64,000 nt of DNA, taken from NCBI GenBank assembly GCA_001797675.1, contig MGQB01000001.1, forward strand, positions 321,531-385,530. Direction: 5' to 3'. The translations under genes were made by a program, and so were the position numbers. A model generated the notes under the pieces. That model ran no database searches. It saw only the letters and a list, made by a program, of their open reading frames with translations, and was not told the DNA's origin. This DNA comes from Deltaproteobacteria bacterium RBG_13_43_22 (lineage in GTDB: Bacteria > Desulfobacterota > RBG-13-43-22). Shown in pieces: positions 47,778 to 54,709 of this stretch. How positions within the stretch are numbered: the stretch's first letter is position 1; every line of letters begins with the position of its first letter.

Positions 47778-48953
47778 TTACCCTTTATTTAAGGCCTTTT
47801 TGATGCCCCTAACGGCCTGTTGGATTCGGTGAGAGTTTTCGACCAGAGCGAACCGGACATATTCATCCCCGTATTCACCAAAACCCCGGCCGGGCGCTAC
47901 GGCCACTTTTCCCTCGCGGATAAGAAACTTGGAAAATTCCACCGAACCCATTTTTCTGAAGGGTTCCGGGATCCTGGACCAGACAAACATCGTCCCTTTG
48001 GGTTTCTCCATCTTCCAACCGATCCGGTTAAGCCCCTGAATCAGGGTATCCCTTCTTTCTTTATAGGTGCTGACGATCTCCTGTACACATTCCTGAGGCC
48101 CGTTTAAGGCAATAATGGAGGCGATCTGGATCGGCTGAAAGACCCCATAATCCAAATAGCTTTTAATTCGGGTCAGGGCATGAATCAATTGTGGATTCCC
48201 GACAGCAAACCCCACCCGCCAGCCGGCCATGCTGTAACTTTTGGATAAAGAAAAGAGTTCCACCCCGACATCCTTAGCCCCGGGAATCTGCAAAAAGCTG
48301 GGGGCCTTGTACCCGTCAAAAACCAGATCGGCATAGGCGAAGTCATGGACGACCATCAGGTGATGCTCTTGGGCAAAGGCCACGATATTCTTAAAAAAAT
48401 CCTTATCCACCACCATGGTGGTGGGGTTGTGGGGAAAGGAGATGATCAGCATTTTCGGACTAGGCCAGGTCTGCTTGGTGGCGGCTAGCAGGTCCTCAAA
48501 GAAATCCCGATCATGACTCATGGGGATACTTCTCAAGTCCCCTCCGGCAATGATAACCGAAAAGGGGTGAATCGGGTAGGTGGGGTCAGGCGCAAAGACC
48601 ACATCGCCGGGACTGGTGGTGGCCAAAATCAAATGAGATATCCCCTCTTTGGCCCCTATGGTCACAATGGCTTCGGTTTCCGGGTCCAGCTCCACCTGGT
48701 AACGCCGCTTATACCAATCACAGATGGCTGTTCGGAGCCGGGTGATCCCTTTGGAAGCCGAATATCGGTGGTTATGGGATTTAAGAGAGGCTTCCCGGAG
48801 TTTATCCACGATATGTTTAGGAGTGGCCAAATCCGGATTCCCCATCCCCAGATCGATAATATCTTCCCCCTGACGCCGTAATTCCATTTTCAGGGTGTTG
48901 ACTGTAGCAAAAACATAAGGGGGGAGGCGGGTCATGCGTCTGAATTCTTCCAT
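47778..48953 (-). CDS. PLP-dependent aminotransferase class I (AlaA/aspartate aminotransferase-like)
   Basis: 391 aa protein with fold-type I motifs ([20 protein letters not shown]). Confidence 0.8.
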
Positions 48954-49128
48954 ATCAATCTCCTCTTTTTTATGGTAAAATAGACATTAAACTAAAAATA
49001 CCCTTAAAGTCAAAATTTTTCCTCCGGATTTTTTGTAGGTATTGACAATCACGCTAAAGGGATTTAGAATTCTTCTACCTTTTTATTATCCTAACGGGTT
49101 AACCAAAGAATTATGGAAGGGAGAGATC

Positions 49129-49458
49129 ATGGGTGAAAAAAATATTACCGAAGTAACCGATGAAAATTTCCAAACGGAAATTTTGGAAAGTTCCACGCCG
49201 GTTCTGGTTGATTTTTGGGCCGTCTGGTGCGGTCCCTGCAAGGCGATTGCCCCGACCGTGGAAGAATTAGCCGTTCAATTTCAAGGGCAGGTCAAAATAG
49301 GCAAATTGAATGTGGATGAAAATCCTAAAACACCAGGCCAGTATGGGATTCGAGCCATCCCCACCCTGATCCTCTTTAAAAACGGAACCGTAGTCGAACA
49401 GATCACCGGAGCAGTTTCCAAAAGCACCCTGGAAACCGCTATCAAAAAGACCCTTTAG
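49129..49458 (+). CDS. trxA: Thioredoxin
   Basis: WCGPCK active site. The ATG at 49129 is preceded by GGAAGGGAG. The ORF track's 49042 start is an upstream extension. Confidence 0.9.
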   Translation: MGEKNITEVTDENFQTEILESSTPVLVDFWAVWCGPCKAIAPTVEELAVQFQGQVKIGKLNVDENPKTPGQYGIRAIPTLILFKNGTVVEQITGAVSKSTLETAIKKTL

Positions 49459-50389: not shown

Positions 50390-51117
50390 AGGAATTTACC
50401 CTGTTTACCCGATCTCCAATAAAACACACCCTGTTTTTATTAATCATGGCCTGGATCTTATTATCCCTGGCGGGATGTGGGTTGTACGAGTGGTTCAAAA
50501 GCAAAGATTCCAAAGAACTGGAAAAGACCGCTGAAGCCTTGATTATGGAAGGTCTGGATGCCTACCAGCGGAAAAAATATGAAAAGGCCGCTGACGCCTT
50601 TCAGAAACTGAAAGATCGTTTTCCTTACAATCAATATGCCATCGTGGCCGAGCTGAAATTGGCCGACAGTTATTTTTTGAAGAAGGATTATCTTTTGGCT
50701 GCCACGGCCTATAAGGAATTCGAAAAAATGCACCCCACCAATGAAATCACCCCCTATGTGATTTTTCAAACGGCCCTGTGTTACTTTAAACAGATGCCCA
50801 CGATCGACCGGGACCAGAGTTACGCTTTTCAGGCGGTTCAGGAATTTGAACGATTGATCAAAAACTATCCCCAGAGCGAATATGTCTCCCAAGCCCAAAC
50901 CCATCTGATAACCGCCCAAAAAAACCTGGCCTTCCATGAATTTGCTATAGGGGAATACTACTTTAATGAAAAAAAATATGAGGCTGCTCTGGGCAGGTTT
51001 GAAATTATCGCGCAACAGTTCCCCGACGCCGCTCACCCGCCTAACTTAAAAAAATATATCGAGATCTGCAAGGAAAAACTGGCTCAAGCCCAGGCTCAAA
51101 AATCAAAAACCCCTTGA
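50386..51117 (+). CDS. bamD: Outer-membrane protein assembly factor BamD (TPR lipoprotein)
   Basis: Lipobox (LSLAGC) followed by TPR repeats. ATGA overlap with the trxB stop. Confidence 0.7.
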   Translation: MKEFTLFTRSPIKHTLFLLIMAWILLSLAGCGLYEWFKSKDSKELEKTAEALIMEGLDAYQRKKYEKAADAFQKLKDRFPYNQYAIVAELKLADSYFLKKDYLLAATAYKEFEKMHPTNEITPYVIFQTALCYFKQMPTIDRDQSYAFQAVQEFERLIKNYPQSEYVSQAQTHLITAQKNLAFHEFAIGEYYFNEKKYEAALGRFEIIAQQFPDAAHPPNLKKYIEICKEKLAQAQAQKSKTP

Positions 51118-51308
51118 TGCCGGATATTTTGGGAGATGTTTTCTTGTTACCATTCGGGAGAAGAAAAACGAAAGGGTAAATATTCTTATCTTTTTCTACC
51201 TGGTTGGATTAGGTTCATTTAACCGGAATCCGCAATCGGAAATCCAAATTTGAAAGTGGCGCCCAAAATACGTTGAGTTTAGGGCAGCCATGAACCTTAC
51301 CTGGTTCA

Positions 51309-51401
51309 TGGCGGAGAGAGAGGGATTCGAACCCTCGGTAGAGGTTTCCCCCTACACTCGCTTAGCAGGCGAGCACCTTAAGCCTACTCGGTCATCTCTC
51401 C
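51309..51401 (-). tRNA. tRNA-Ser (anticodon GCU)
   Basis: Reverse-complement folds as GGAGAGA acceptor stem, anticodon loop CUGCUAA, long variable arm, T-loop GGTTCGAAT and a genomically encoded CCA. Confidence 0.85.
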
Positions 51402-51517
51402 GTAATGCAGTCGCAGTCCTTTTCCAACAAAACCCTCTTCCCTCTTAGAACACTCCTAAGCAACATCTCAGGGTTTGTGGATTCCGAAATCCGCAATCCG
51501 ATATCGGAAATAATGGA

Positions 51518-51609
51518 TGGCGGAGGGAGAGGGATTCGAACCCCCGTTCCCCGGAAGGAAAGCGGTTTTCAAGACCGCCGCCTTAAACCACTCGGCCATC
51601 CCTCCCTCC
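51518..51609 (-). tRNA. tRNA-Ser (anticodon UGA)
   Basis: Reverse-complement folds as GGAGGGA acceptor stem, anticodon loop CUUGAAA, long variable arm, T-loop GGTTCGAAT and an encoded CCA. Confidence 0.85.
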
Positions 51610-51951
51610 TTAAATTAGTATCTTTTTACCATTCTCCTCTCTTTCTGTCAACCACAAGCAATTTTACCTTGGCAGGAAATTTTCTTCACCGGTCCCGGTT
51701 TCTTGGACAAAAGATCCCGCTGAAACCCGGGAAGTTTTTTTGGTGGTGGTCTTTGACAATTTATCCATATTAGACGAATTTCGGTTTTGCTCCATATCAT
51801 AAGAAACGATGTCCTTTTTATCGATAATTATTGGTTAATATGACAATTTTCCCTATTACCAATATTTAAAGTATGTTATAATATATAATATAGATACATT
51901 GGGAAATAGAGAACTTCGTATGTTAATTGTTAGCCGTTACGAACATTAATT

Positions 51952-52329
51952 ATGACCGAACAGTCATCCCCAAGCTCTCGCAATATCCCATTGCCGATTC
52001 AGCGGGAGGTGCGGCGGCGCTGCGGCTTTGGCTGCGTTATTTGTGGCATGCCGCTATATGAATTCGAGCACATGCTTGGTTGGGCCAAGGTCCAAAGGCA
52101 TGTCACAGAGGAAATCACTCTATTGTGCGATCAACATCACCGAGAACGCACGGCAGGCCTTCTTCCAATTGAGGCCGTAAGCGAGGCAAACGCCAATCCC
52201 TACAATTTGCGCGGGGAGTATCAAAACCCTATGACCTCCATTTCGCGGGGAATAAATGCGAAGCTGTACTCGGTTCGAATACCTTCACCTTTGAGTATCT
52301 CGGCGTGCCAACATTTACCGTCCCTGTAG
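51952..52329 (+). CDS. HNH-family endonuclease-like protein
   Basis: RRCGFGCVIC...YEFEHMLGW...LLCDQHHRE matches the HNH C-x2-C / E-H / C-x2-H architecture. Sits in an AT-rich islet next to the tRNA-Ser genes. Confidence 0.5.
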   Translation: MTEQSSPSSRNIPLPIQREVRRRCGFGCVICGMPLYEFEHMLGWAKVQRHVTEEITLLCDQHHRERTAGLLPIEAVSEANANPYNLRGEYQNPMTSISRGINAKLYSVRIPSPLSISACQHLPSL

Positions 52330-52387
52330 GTGTTGATGGCGTACCTCTCCTAGCCTTTCTGCTTGATGATGATCACCTGCTTCTGCT

Positions 52388-52801
52388 TTGCGACTCTTCG
52401 ACGAGGTAAATAATCCGGTCCTTCAGATCATCAACAATCAACTCATTTACTCAGTTGCACCTTGGGACATTCATCTCGTCGGCACGAATCTGGTAATTAG
52501 GGATGCACCACGAAAAATACTCGTGGATATCACGTTTGGCGTACCGAACAGGATCGTGATTAATCGAGGTCGATTTCTCTTCAATGGCGTGGAGATCTTG
52601 TTAACGCCAGAGTATTTTCTTGTCGTTAACAACGCGACGATGATGTCTCAATGTCATATGGAGAATTGTCATGGAGGAATCATCATCGGCTCGCAAGATT
52701 TTGGGGGCGGAACGGCATTCCGAATCGCCGGGGTTTCGCGGTACCTCGGCGACCGGACTGCGGCAATTCAGTGGGCCGAACAATCGCTTGGTAACGGCTA
52801 A
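52388..52801 (+). CDS. Hypothetical protein (no canonical ATG start; possibly a decayed or frameshifted partner of the HNH gene)
   Basis: 137 aa ORF opening at TTG. The next frame is open across the gap to the HNH ORF. No recognisable motifs. Confidence 0.3.
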   Translation: MRLFDEVNNPVLQIINNQLIYSVAPWDIHLVGTNLVIRDAPRKILVDITFGVPNRIVINRGRFLFNGVEILLTPEYFLVVNNATMMSQCHMENCHGGIIIGSQDFGGGTAFRIAGVSRYLGDRTAAIQWAEQSLGNG

Positions 52802-52941
52802 CCCCCAATTCGAGAAGGATGCTTCGCGAGCAGCACTTCGTGCGCTCGCTCGCGCCTCTCAATTGGACCGTTCGCCATAATTAACTTGACACTGCCAAAT
52901 ATTAAGCGTACCATATGTGGTACGTTTAGGAGGTGAAAGAT

Positions 52942-53184
52942 ATGACAGCATTGTCCGCATCAGAAGCAAGAAAGCGTTTATATACTCTGGTGGATGAAGT
53001 AAAAGAGACCCACCAACCGGTACAAATCGTCGGCAAGAGAAGTTCTGCGGTTCTTGTATCCGAAGAAGACTGGAAAGCAATTGAAGAAACACTCTTCCTT
53101 ACGTCAATTCCCGGCATGAGGGAATCCATTAAGAAGGGTCTTAAGACACCCGTAGAAAAGTGCTCGAAGGAGCCCGGCTGGTGA
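52942..53184 (+). CDS. yefM: Type II antitoxin, Phd/YefM family
   Basis: MTALSASEARKRLYTLVDEV...PVQIVGKRSSAVLVSEEDWKAIEETL is canonical YefM. An AGGAGG ribosome-binding site lies 8 nt upstream of the ATG at 52942. Confidence 0.8.
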   Translation: MTALSASEARKRLYTLVDEVKETHQPVQIVGKRSSAVLVSEEDWKAIEETLFLTSIPGMRESIKKGLKTPVEKCSKEPGW

Positions 53185-53444
53185 GTTGGCGATTGAGGTA
53201 TACCAAACAGGCTCAAAAAGACGCAAAGAAAATCGCACAGTCTGGTCTTAAGCCCCAATCATCAAAGCTATTAGAAATAATCCAAAATAATCCTTACCAA
53301 AACCCTCCGCCTTACGAGAAGCTGGTCGGTGATCTCACTGAGGCGTTGTCCCGAAGAATCAATATTCAACATCGTCTTATCTATCAGGTTCTTGAAGACA
53401 TCAAAACTGTGAAAGTGCTACGTATGTGGACACATCATGAATAA
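53181..53444 (+). CDS. yoeB: Type II toxin, YoeB/Txe (RelE superfamily)
   Basis: C-terminus (RRINIQHRLIYQVLEDIKTVKVLRMWTHHE) matches YoeB (RRITEEHRLVY...RYHY). The GTG start overlaps the yefM stop (GTGA). Confidence 0.75.
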   Translation: MSWRLRYTKQAQKDAKKIAQSGLKPQSSKLLEIIQNNPYQNPPPYEKLVGDLTEALSRRINIQHRLIYQVLEDIKTVKVLRMWTHHE

Positions 53445-53527
53445 AACGGCGAACAAGTCATTCCACCGGATCGGCCAAAAGGCGGGCCTCCCGGTGAACT
53501 CGCCGTTGACCTGAGGTGTTTCCAACT

Positions 53528-54709
53528 TTATTTTCTTTTTACAATCCTGAGCCCGTCCTTGATCTGATTGGAGGGATGGAGAAAGACCTCCTCCCCTTCC
53601 TTCAATCCTTTTACGATCTCCGCCTCAAAGGTTCCCTGTCGGCCCACTTCGACCACACGCCGCCTGGCCCGGCCCTCCTGGTTAACGAAAACCGCCCAAT
53701 TCTGTCCAATCCTGAAAAGTGCACTGGCGGGAATTTTCAGGACCTCTTCTCCCTTCCAGATAACGATCCGGGCCTCGACCCGAAAACCGTCTCCCAGGGA
53801 AGCCGGCGGGTCCACAAAGTCGGCAATGACATTGACCCGTTTTTCTTCCACACCCAAAGCCGACACCTTGGTAAACCCCCAGGGTTCCACCAGCCTCACC
53901 CTGGCCTCAAGCGGTTGATTCCCTCCCCAGTTGTCCAGCAAAACCGTATGGCCCGGTTTGACCTTAACGGCCTCCGTAGTCAGCAGGTCGATCACCACTT
54001 CGAGTTGAGAAGGATTCCCAAGCACCAACAGCGGTGTTCCGGGTGCGACGACCTGCTCGTTTTTTTCCAGGACTTTGAGCACCCGACCGGACACAGGAGA
54101 ACGAACAGCGATGGTTTGAGGCTCTCCTTTTACTTCTTCCAGGGCCAGCAGACCGGCCTGGATGGCCTTAACCTCAAAGGCCGCGGCCTGGGCCTTCATT
54201 TGGACGGCACGGAGTTCCTCATTTCGCAGCTTTTCCGCATCCCTGGAGAATTCCATTTCCTGCTGGGTGGCCAAACCGTTTTTTTGCAGCTGCTCCATCC
54301 GCTGTCTCTCCCGCCGGGACTTTTCAACATTAATCCGGGTCTGCTCGATCAGGACCTCCGTTTCCCGGTGCAAGGCTTCGGCGGCCTGGAGCCTGGCCCG
54401 AATCTCGGTCGATTCCCGCCTTCCCAGGGGCAGGGGGTGGATCACGGCGATCGATTGATTGAATCCCACGGGATCCCCTTCTTTAAGTCGGATACGGGTC
54501 AATCGACCGGCTACAGGAGAAGCAACGATAAAGCGATCCTTGGCCCGGGTTTCACCTTCCTCATCCACCGTGACCATCAAAGGGCCTTTCTGGGCCCGTT
54601 GCAGATCCACTTCGACCGGAGAAGGAAGAAAGACCCAAATGATAACGCCTAATAAAATGACGGCCGAAATGATATAGAGTAGTCCCTTTTTTCTGTTTTT
54701 TTTCATCAT
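53528..54709 (-). CDS. HlyD-family periplasmic adaptor (DevB/MacA-like) of the ABC efflux system
   Basis: Start moved to the ATGATG at 54709 (MMKKNRKKGLLYIISAVILLGVIIW) with a GAGG ribosome-binding site. The upstream ORF-track extension runs through a structured repeat. Coiled-coil and beta-barrel adaptor domains are present. Confidence 0.75.
   Translation of the reverse strand: MMKKNRKKGLLYIISAVILLGVIIWVFLPSPVEVDLQRAQKGPLMVTVDEEGETRAKDRFIVASPVAGRLTRIRLKEGDPVGFNQSIAVIHPLPLGRRESTEIRARLQAAEALHRETEVLIEQTRINVEKSRRERQRMEQLQKNGLATQQEMEFSRDAEKLRNEELRAVQMKAQAAAFEVKAIQAGLLALEEVKGEPQTIAVRSPVSGRVLKVLEKNEQVVAPGTPLLVLGNPSQLEVVIDLLTTEAVKVKPGHTVLLDNWGGNQPLEARVRLVEPWGFTKVSALGVEEKRVNVIADFVDPPASLGDGFRVEARIVIWKGEEVLKIPASALFRIGQNWAVFVNQEGRARRRVVEVGRQGTFEAEIVKGLKEGEEVFLHPSNQIKDGLRIVKRK

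Follow-up and report, generated by a model that had tools for sequence, protein, structure and literature searches.

A probable two-cassette integron array without an integrase between tRNA-Ser(UGA) and hlyD in an uncultivated deltaproteobacterium

Two tRNA-Ser genes, an AT-rich stretch, the reading frames of an HNH-like protein and a yefM-yoeB toxin-antitoxin (TA) pair lie next to each other in a 64,000-nucleotide stretch of Deltaproteobacteria bacterium RBG_13_43_22 (contig MGQB01000001.1, positions 321,531 to 385,530; the whole of this 64-kb stretch is referred to as the window). This raises the question of what kind of element these genes form and how it came to stand between tRNA-Ser(UGA) and an hlyD-family gene. 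An earlier note on this DNA had proposed either an acquired remnant at a tRNA integration hotspot or a small defence module stabilised by the TA pair. [quoted passage not shown] The element is an ordinary member of a known and fairly common class and no new defence system, and the annotation of the locus would shift from a tRNA islet or defence module to a two-cassette CALIN with a fresh pseudogene and an intact TA cassette.

Boundaries and attC sites of the two cassettes

The limits of the first cassette emerged from comparison with intact copies of its HNH-like gene. The gene of the closest intact homologue (P0001) sits in arrays (L007-L009) of small same-strand open reading frames (ORFs) without Pfam matches, in which GC-rich spacers make up imperfect palindromes, (G/C)CTAAC...GTTAG(G/C)C, as in textbook attC sites. 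Homology of the window to the L007-L009 cassette starts exactly at GTTAGCC (51929) and stops at GGTAACGGCTAACCCC (52788-52805), including GGCTAACCCC at 52796-52805. We looked for attC sites as R''-L''...L'-R' imperfect palindromes with the boxes RYYYAAC...GTTRRRY on the strand of the ORF, and scored them with two covariance models: R1, built from 16 attC sites of the HNH-cassette arrays and a Marinobacter array with the window sites excluded, and R2, a second, broader model built from 58 hits. The site at 52796-52876 reached 33.1 bits (E=3.6e-6) with R1 and 29.5 bits (E=1.1e-5) with R2. Its bottom strand had a folding energy of -21.9 kcal/mol (z=-3.7); the R boxes were paired, and one T and one G bulged out singly, as such bases do in canonical attC sites. 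The stop codon of the cassette 1 gene (TAA, 52799-52801) falls within the R'' box of this site.

The second cassette consists of yefM-yoeB under its own promoter. As in type II YefM-YoeB modules, the antitoxin gene lies 5' of the toxin gene and overlaps it, here by 4 nt, and both proteins scored above curated cutoffs, which confirmed the overlapping operon recognised previously. The YoeB protein showed 100% identity to one from Deltaproteobacteria bacterium RBG_13_43_22. The TA promoter is the best sigma-70-like match of the region (10/12), and the palindrome that overlaps it, CGTACCATATGTGGTACG, recurs wherever the module was compared, in six further copies, and is the putative operator of yefM-yoeB. 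Downstream of the yoeB stop codon, the same TTCCACCGG...CCGGTGAA core was found in five contexts (the window, L036, L037, L043, and L047), and homology ended at GTT with unrelated DNA beyond (GTTGACC, GTTATGC, GTTATGC, GTTCGGC, and GTTAGGT, respectively). This core is identical to that of a Marinobacter attC that is significant by covariance model. Because the same attC and the same GTT end of homology recur in five contexts, the attC of cassette 2 is supported comparatively.

The R'' box GGCTAAC (52796-52802) is the reverse complement of the start of cassette 1, GTTAGCC (51929), at 7/7 positions, and the R'' box GGCGAAC of the second site is likewise a 7/7 reverse complement of the start of cassette 2, GTTCGCC (52870-52876), whereas each R'' box matches the R' box that follows it at 5/7 positions only. 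This is the circular-permutation signature of excised cassettes, which G|TT exchange would leave in any unit that circularises.

CALINs are defined by at least two clustered attC sites, less than 4 kb apart and on the same strand (PMC4889954); here, one site is significant by covariance model, and the other, at E about 1-2, has comparative support. Two-cassette arrays account for 1362 of 2961 CALINs, and cassettes can also insert at genomic GWT sites, termed attG (10.1101/2022.09.11.507474). Neither a tyrosine recombinase nor an integron-integrase was found in the window by calls of the neighbouring genes with Pfam, all ORFs of 300-430 aa being housekeeping genes, and tblastn of an IntI1 query gave no match in it; the previous statement that no integrase is present thus holds across the 64 kb. 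As there is no intI in the window, the array does not form part of a complete integron, in which intI, attI, and the cassette promoter (Pc) lie beside the cassettes; attI sites are not recognisable by their sequence, and the repeats and extended -10 element of the left flank described below are suggestive at most.

Comparison with known systems supported this placement and also revealed differences. Like the CALINs described with IntegronFinder in 2016, the element has two same-strand, attC-bounded cassettes ~0.6 kb apart and no intI within >10 kb on either side, but its second attC is weak by covariance model, its host belongs to an uncultivated Thermodesulfobacteriota lineage of metagenome-assembled genomes (MAGs), and it has a tRNA promoter immediately on one side and an efflux operon immediately on the other. 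With the TA cassettes of sedentary chromosomal integrons, such as the Vibrio cholerae superintegron, cassette 2 shares a two-gene type II TA module with its own promoter/operator and its own attC, as well as recurrence inside larger arrays (L036, L043, L047). In contrast to those, it is here one of only two cassettes and off any integron platform, and we infer its stabilising role from TA cassettes in general, which bring their own promoters and stabilise arrays (PMC13108822). Insertions at attG, or single attC sites lacking integron-integrases (SALINs; Loot et al.), share with this locus the G|TT outer junctions in non-att DNA, and a solo copy of the TA cassette exists in a related MAG (L037); however, the locus has two cassettes instead of one and is known from sequence alone.

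Several observations weigh against a CALIN. The attC calls were made with covariance models built here and not with the model and thresholds of IntegronFinder. No integron-integrase was seen for this organism, of which 64 kb were examined, and no attC forms the left junction, at which the first cassette would have been captured. The attC of cassette 2, just 3' of yoeB, was weak (11.1-11.9 bits, E=1-2, rank 2-3 window-wide for R1/R2 with filters off; with R1, 53448-53510 ranked second at 11.1 bits, E=1.9) and not significant by the covariance models alone, R2 did not raise its score, and its minimum free energy fold was no better than those of shuffled sequences (z=-1.45). In addition, L039-L042 (4100-5300) hold a related yefM-yoeB pair beside mazEF that has this promoter and palindrome but no attC or GTT boundary; the TA module thus also exists outside cassettes.

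An integron integrase, either one whose gene lies elsewhere or one lost in the meantime, would have recombined the folded bottom strand of each attC at G|TT of its R' box and thereby set the cassettes between the promoter region of tRNA-Ser(UGA) and the 3' end of hlyD. Once expressed, the TA cassette would presumably make loss of the cassette DNA costly via post-segregational toxicity, and the promoter-less HNH cassette may have been free to decay.

Table 1 Features of the tRNA-Ser to hlyD interval, in window positions.
Feature	Positions	Strand	Basis or remarks
tRNA-Ser(GCU)	51309-51401	minus	native flank; ARAGORN; Rfam tRNA 57.8 bits
tRNA-Ser(UGA)	51518-51605	minus	native flank; ARAGORN and Rfam
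AT-rich left flank, 263 bp	51666-51928		33.5% GC, lowest 0.4% of 263-nt windows
Left crossover and first bases of cassette 1, G|TTAGCC	51929-51935	plus	start of homology to L007-L009
Cassette 1 gene, pseudogene of the 283-aa HNH-like/beta-domain family	51952-52801	plus	three-frame translation, alignment
attC of cassette 1, R'' GGCTAAC ... R' G|TTCGCC	52796-52876	plus	covariance model, fold
Cassette 2, self-promoted yefM-yoeB	52871-53505	plus	DNA homology to L036, L037
TA promoter TTGACA-17-TACCAT and overlapping palindrome CGTACCATATGTGGTACG	52886-52924	plus	promoter proper 52886-52914
yefM ribosome-binding site AGGAGG	52928-52933	plus	
yefM antitoxin gene, 80 aa	52942-53184	plus	PF02604 E=4e-15, 55.8 bits versus 29.8; TIGR01552; independent gene calls
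yoeB toxin gene, 87 aa	53181-53444	plus	TIGR02116 Txe/YoeB, 87.7 bits versus cutoff 51.8
attC of cassette 2, R'' GGCGAAC ... TTCCACCGG ... CCGGTGAA ... R' G|TTGACC	53448-53511	plus	
hlyD-family membrane-fusion gene	53528-54709	minus	native right flank; Pfam HlyD_3

The HNH-like gene and its protein family

In the first cassette, an HNH ORF of 125 aa (51952-52329) and an ORF of 137 aa (52388-52801) had been listed as two genes. Instead, they are pieces of one 283-codon gene. Three-frame translation placed the conserved reading in frame 1, then in frame 3 from near 52214 and in frame 2 from near 52384, and DNA alignment with the closest intact copies revealed two 1-nt deletions, the loss of one G from a G5 run and a change of CTGCAGCTG to CTGC-TTTG. 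Putting one base back at each deletion restored 283 stop-free codons. The resulting spliced 283-aa conceptual protein showed up to 85% identity at 100% coverage to intact 283-aa homologues, and 619 homologous proteins were found at E<=1e-3. Four metagenome contigs matched the region 51100-53600 at 100% identity, and a further one agreed over the 2198 nt that it spans, both deletions included. Because the frameshifts are the same in these five contigs, which stem from at least five assemblies, they are real. Nonsynonymous change was dN=0.108, with synonymous change (dS) saturated and dN/dS ~0.05; because of this low ratio, we take the cassette 1 gene to be recently inactivated.

Pfam HNH (PF01844) stayed below its gathering threshold, the best match, in one homologue, having E=0.13 and 12.8 bits versus 21.4, and searches of NCBIfam, PADLOC, and PDB with sequences and profiles gave no match for the family. 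In PHROGs, phrog_6544 (unknown function) matched the family full-length with E-values down to 5e-43, and the PHROG HNH endonuclease family matched residues ~10-69 (E 2e-7 to 9e-6). The invariant residues of the family include C24, C28, C31, H40, C59, H62, and H63. The PHROG HNH family and the CxxC...CxxH/His pattern, which alone back the label 'HNH', are supportive only, and the protein is best described as a putative HNH-like one. Against phages and plasmids, tblastn returned distant or unannotated matches only.

With HNH (His-Me finger) endonucleases (phrog_6544/phrog_7785), the family shares the N-terminal CxxC...CxxH and invariant His residues, but it differs from them in a C-terminal all-beta domain of ~180 residues without a sequence or fold relative in PDB and BFVD, and in that the window copy is a pseudogene. 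The AlphaFold (AF2) model of the protein was of low confidence across residues 1-95 and gave a confident all-beta domain for residues 100-280, for which Foldseek against PDB and BFVD found no neighbour. Since the family comprises at least 619 sequences, carried by cassettes and phages, it may deserve functional testing. Several of its members (P0011, P0013, P0015, P0019, P0051, P0080, P0102, and P0118) carry the name 'trigger factor' in JGI or 'cell division protein' in NCBI/UniRef; none of our family or domain searches backs either name, and both are probably propagated misannotations.

Relatives of the locus and origin of the insertion

The gene order trxB-bamD-tRNA-Ser-tRNA-Ser is kept in 13 related Thermodesulfobacteriota MAGs, none of which has the HNH gene, TA genes, or an attC beside the tRNA-Ser pair. 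The only relative that also shares hlyD and ftsX (80% and 89% aa identity) is L020, in which the tRNA-to-hlyD spacer is 311 bp long and empty of cassettes. Homology of L020 to the window extends through 51635 by BLAST and to ~51665 by eye, including the TTGACA element of the tRNA promoter region, and resumes at 53528. Comparison of the tRNA-Ser-to-hlyD interval with relatives, as the earlier note had suggested, thus revealed that its gene content is not conserved; metagenomes scanned with HlyD yielded no closer relative of the interval. Judged by these comparisons, the cassette DNA is acquired and strain-specific.

Copies of the TA cassette were found at other sites. The MAG to which L020 belongs (JACQYK01) holds it elsewhere, inserted solo at the unrelated locus L037, with 94.6% DNA identity over 52870-53501, and L036 is 94.9% identical over 52879-53500; outside these limits, the DNA is unrelated. 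L036 is a long same-strand array and, like L047, one of two longer arrays in MAG172 (JBFMBU01) in which the TA cassette occurs, and L043 and L047 hold diverged TA copies with the same attC. Both the HNH cassette (L007-L009) and the TA cassette (L036, L037, L043, L047) therefore occur as discrete mobile units, and they travel independently of each other. The idea that the TA pair is a stabilising partner of the HNH gene does not fit this pattern, as the pair is a separate, independently mobile cassette. With one TA cassette seen in big arrays, solo, and in the window, plus an empty site in a relative, the locus would be a natural example of cassettes spreading off integron platforms in uncultivated sulfate-reducer-related lineages.

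The arrays themselves showed further features. In L036 (1-7000) and L047 (2000-9200), the same-strand arrays are rich in TA modules (RelE/HTH, DUF4160/DUF2442, BrnT, YefM-YoeB) and also carry an SRA-HNH protein and two transposase genes of the Y1 type associated with repetitive extragenic palindromes (REP); this lineage clearly hosts active integron-type arrays. Non-coding cassettes of ~420 nt occur within GTTATAGC...GCTATAAC bounds at L008 4927-5348 and at L009 865-1586 and 5824-6245, and an IS3-family insertion (rve) breaks a GC-rich array beside an intact HNH cassette.

With regard to how the cassettes reached this site, we give slightly less than an even chance to an integrase acting in trans that put them at a non-canonical GTT (attG) site of the genome. 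The intergenic DNA around it would already have been AT-rich, and before insertion the site would read ...GTATGTTAATTG|TTGACCTGAGG.... Both outer junctions are G|TT and fit the GWT of such sites (10.1101/2022.09.11.507474), the TA cassette lies solo in AT-rich non-attC DNA of L037 (ATTATTTG|TTCGCC), and neither intI nor an intI pseudogene is found nearby. Moreover, the hlyD operon could formerly have ended at a terminator-like hairpin (51715-51732), in which case the AT-rich DNA would be native. In this flank, no attC was detected by R1 or R2 with filters off, and no fold was significant. However, the flank is absent from L020, whose spacer is unrelated past ~51665, and an exact metagenome search with the left flank plus GTT, which covers empty and alternative-cassette sites, returned a same-strain contig only, so that no empty site bearing the AT-rich flank was found.

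A second origin, which we regard as possible but less likely than not, is a decayed complete integron, in which the 263 AT-rich bp are the former intI-attI intergenic region with attI and Pc, and intI was deleted. This would fit two copies of GTATGTTA at 51871 and 51918, the sole two in the 64 kb and 58 and 11 nt 5' of the crossover, which resemble the direct repeats bound by the integrase at attI1. Facing cassette 1 is a perfect extended -10 element, TGTTATAAT (51874-51882, plus strand), and the first position of the HNH cassette agrees with attI being the usual entry point of new cassettes. On the other hand, the GTATGTTA repeat was noticed post hoc and in AT-rich DNA, no intI remnant was detectable, and the deletion would need to end neatly beside an intact tRNA promoter. 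Furthermore, 95% of CALINs are without nearby intI pseudogenes, so intI loss is not their default origin (PMC4889954).

It is improbable that the AT-rich segment is a functional orphan attI/Pc pad served in trans by an integrase encoded elsewhere in the genome, or that the widespread 283-aa cassette family is an unrecognised single-gene anti-phage system; if true, the orphan attI/Pc would be an integrase-less capture site parked beside tRNA genes.

We consider it most unlikely that the locus is the remnant of a tRNA-Ser-targeting integrative island whose tyrosine integrase was lost. The DNA does adjoin tRNA genes, and the locus is a synteny breakpoint at which the relative L018 has transposase genes, but no integrase lies by the tRNA, the cassettes lie on the 5'/promoter side of tRNA-Ser(UGA) whereas such islands sit at the 3' end, and the internal and outer boundaries are attC/G|TT. 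The direct repeat of the tRNA 3' end that was expected as an att mark is missing too, as 51606-54200 holds no tRNA-derived repeat of more than 10 nt. From the earlier proposal of an acquired remnant at a tRNA hotspot, acquisition stands with the empty L020 site and the 13 MAGs without the genes, and the tRNA-targeted origin falls with the attC/G|TT boundaries. A 21-nt direct repeat bracketing the interval (81% identity; 51615-51635/53528-53548) was rejected as an att site because both copies are also present in the empty-site L020; the copy at 53528-53548 is hlyD C-terminal coding sequence, and the pair was judged coincidental.

A functional small defence module, made of an HNH nuclease and a partner ORF and stabilised by the TA pair, is hardly credible either: defence genes are enriched among integron cassettes, and HNH-like systems of a single gene, e.g. 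Sirona and Nemetona, are among them (10.1101/2024.07.02.601686), and the HNH-like family is also found in phage genomes (phrog_6544), but nuclease and partner are a single gene with two frameshifts fixed in the population, PADLOC 2.0 matched no component in the fragments, the TA proteins, or the intact homologues, and the HNH and TA cassettes move independently.

The tRNA-Ser genes and flanking DNA

The tRNA-Ser genes on one side of the interval and hlyD on the other are native, and BamD groups the host with uncultivated Thermodesulfobacteriota ('deltaproteobacterial') MAGs. ARAGORN and Rfam confirmed the two minus-strand tRNA-Ser genes (GCU and UGA), of which tRNA-Ser(GCU), adjoining bamD, is kept in 16 related MAG loci, and the promoter-like TTGACA of tRNA-Ser(UGA) lies at 51646-51651 on the minus strand. 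A motif, CCGCAATC, had been described as repeated upstream of both genes. The repetition was borne out, with copies only at 51230 and 51491, each of which lies 3' of a minus-strand tRNA-Ser and not upstream. Because the element is also kept 3' of tRNA-Ser(GCU) in related MAGs, it is native and unrelated to the islet.

The low GC content of the stretch beside the tRNA genes was equally upheld (51666-51928), yet the background of ~55% GC assumed for it was not, as the window mean is 49.9%. More short AT-rich intergenic stretches (31-36% GC) occur in the window at ~12000, ~34800, and 48900-49200, so that a low GC content does not by itself mark DNA as foreign here.

Beyond tRNA-Ser(UGA), the genes vary among relatives (L014-L028), so that the tRNA-Ser pair is a synteny breakpoint in the lineage. 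The genes found there are CvpA/MazG-like, acyl-CoA ligase, TatC, or ATP synthase genes, or IS21-type transposase genes (L018), and the MacAB/HlyD efflux operon stands beside the pair in the window organism and L020 only.

In the region, Rfam detected the tRNAs alone, plus sub-threshold antisense artefacts. Matches to the 'Plastid-psbl-rps4 3'UTR' model on the plus strand (51312-51365, 49.8 bits, and 51521-51570, 30.3 bits; gathering score 68) are almost certainly artefactual, caused by a segment antisense to tRNA-Ser within the model. The 3' trailers of the tRNA-Ser genes (51223-51308 and 51484-51517 in the window; L014, L016-L018, L020, and L028) contain conserved elements, one of the GAAATCCGCAATCG type and two that form hairpins, GCCCTAAAC...GTTTAGGGC and CCATGAACC...GGTTCATGG, the latter overlapping the CCA end of the tRNA. 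These elements may be processing or terminator signals, and in L020 and L018 the trailer unit is present twice, after both tRNAs.

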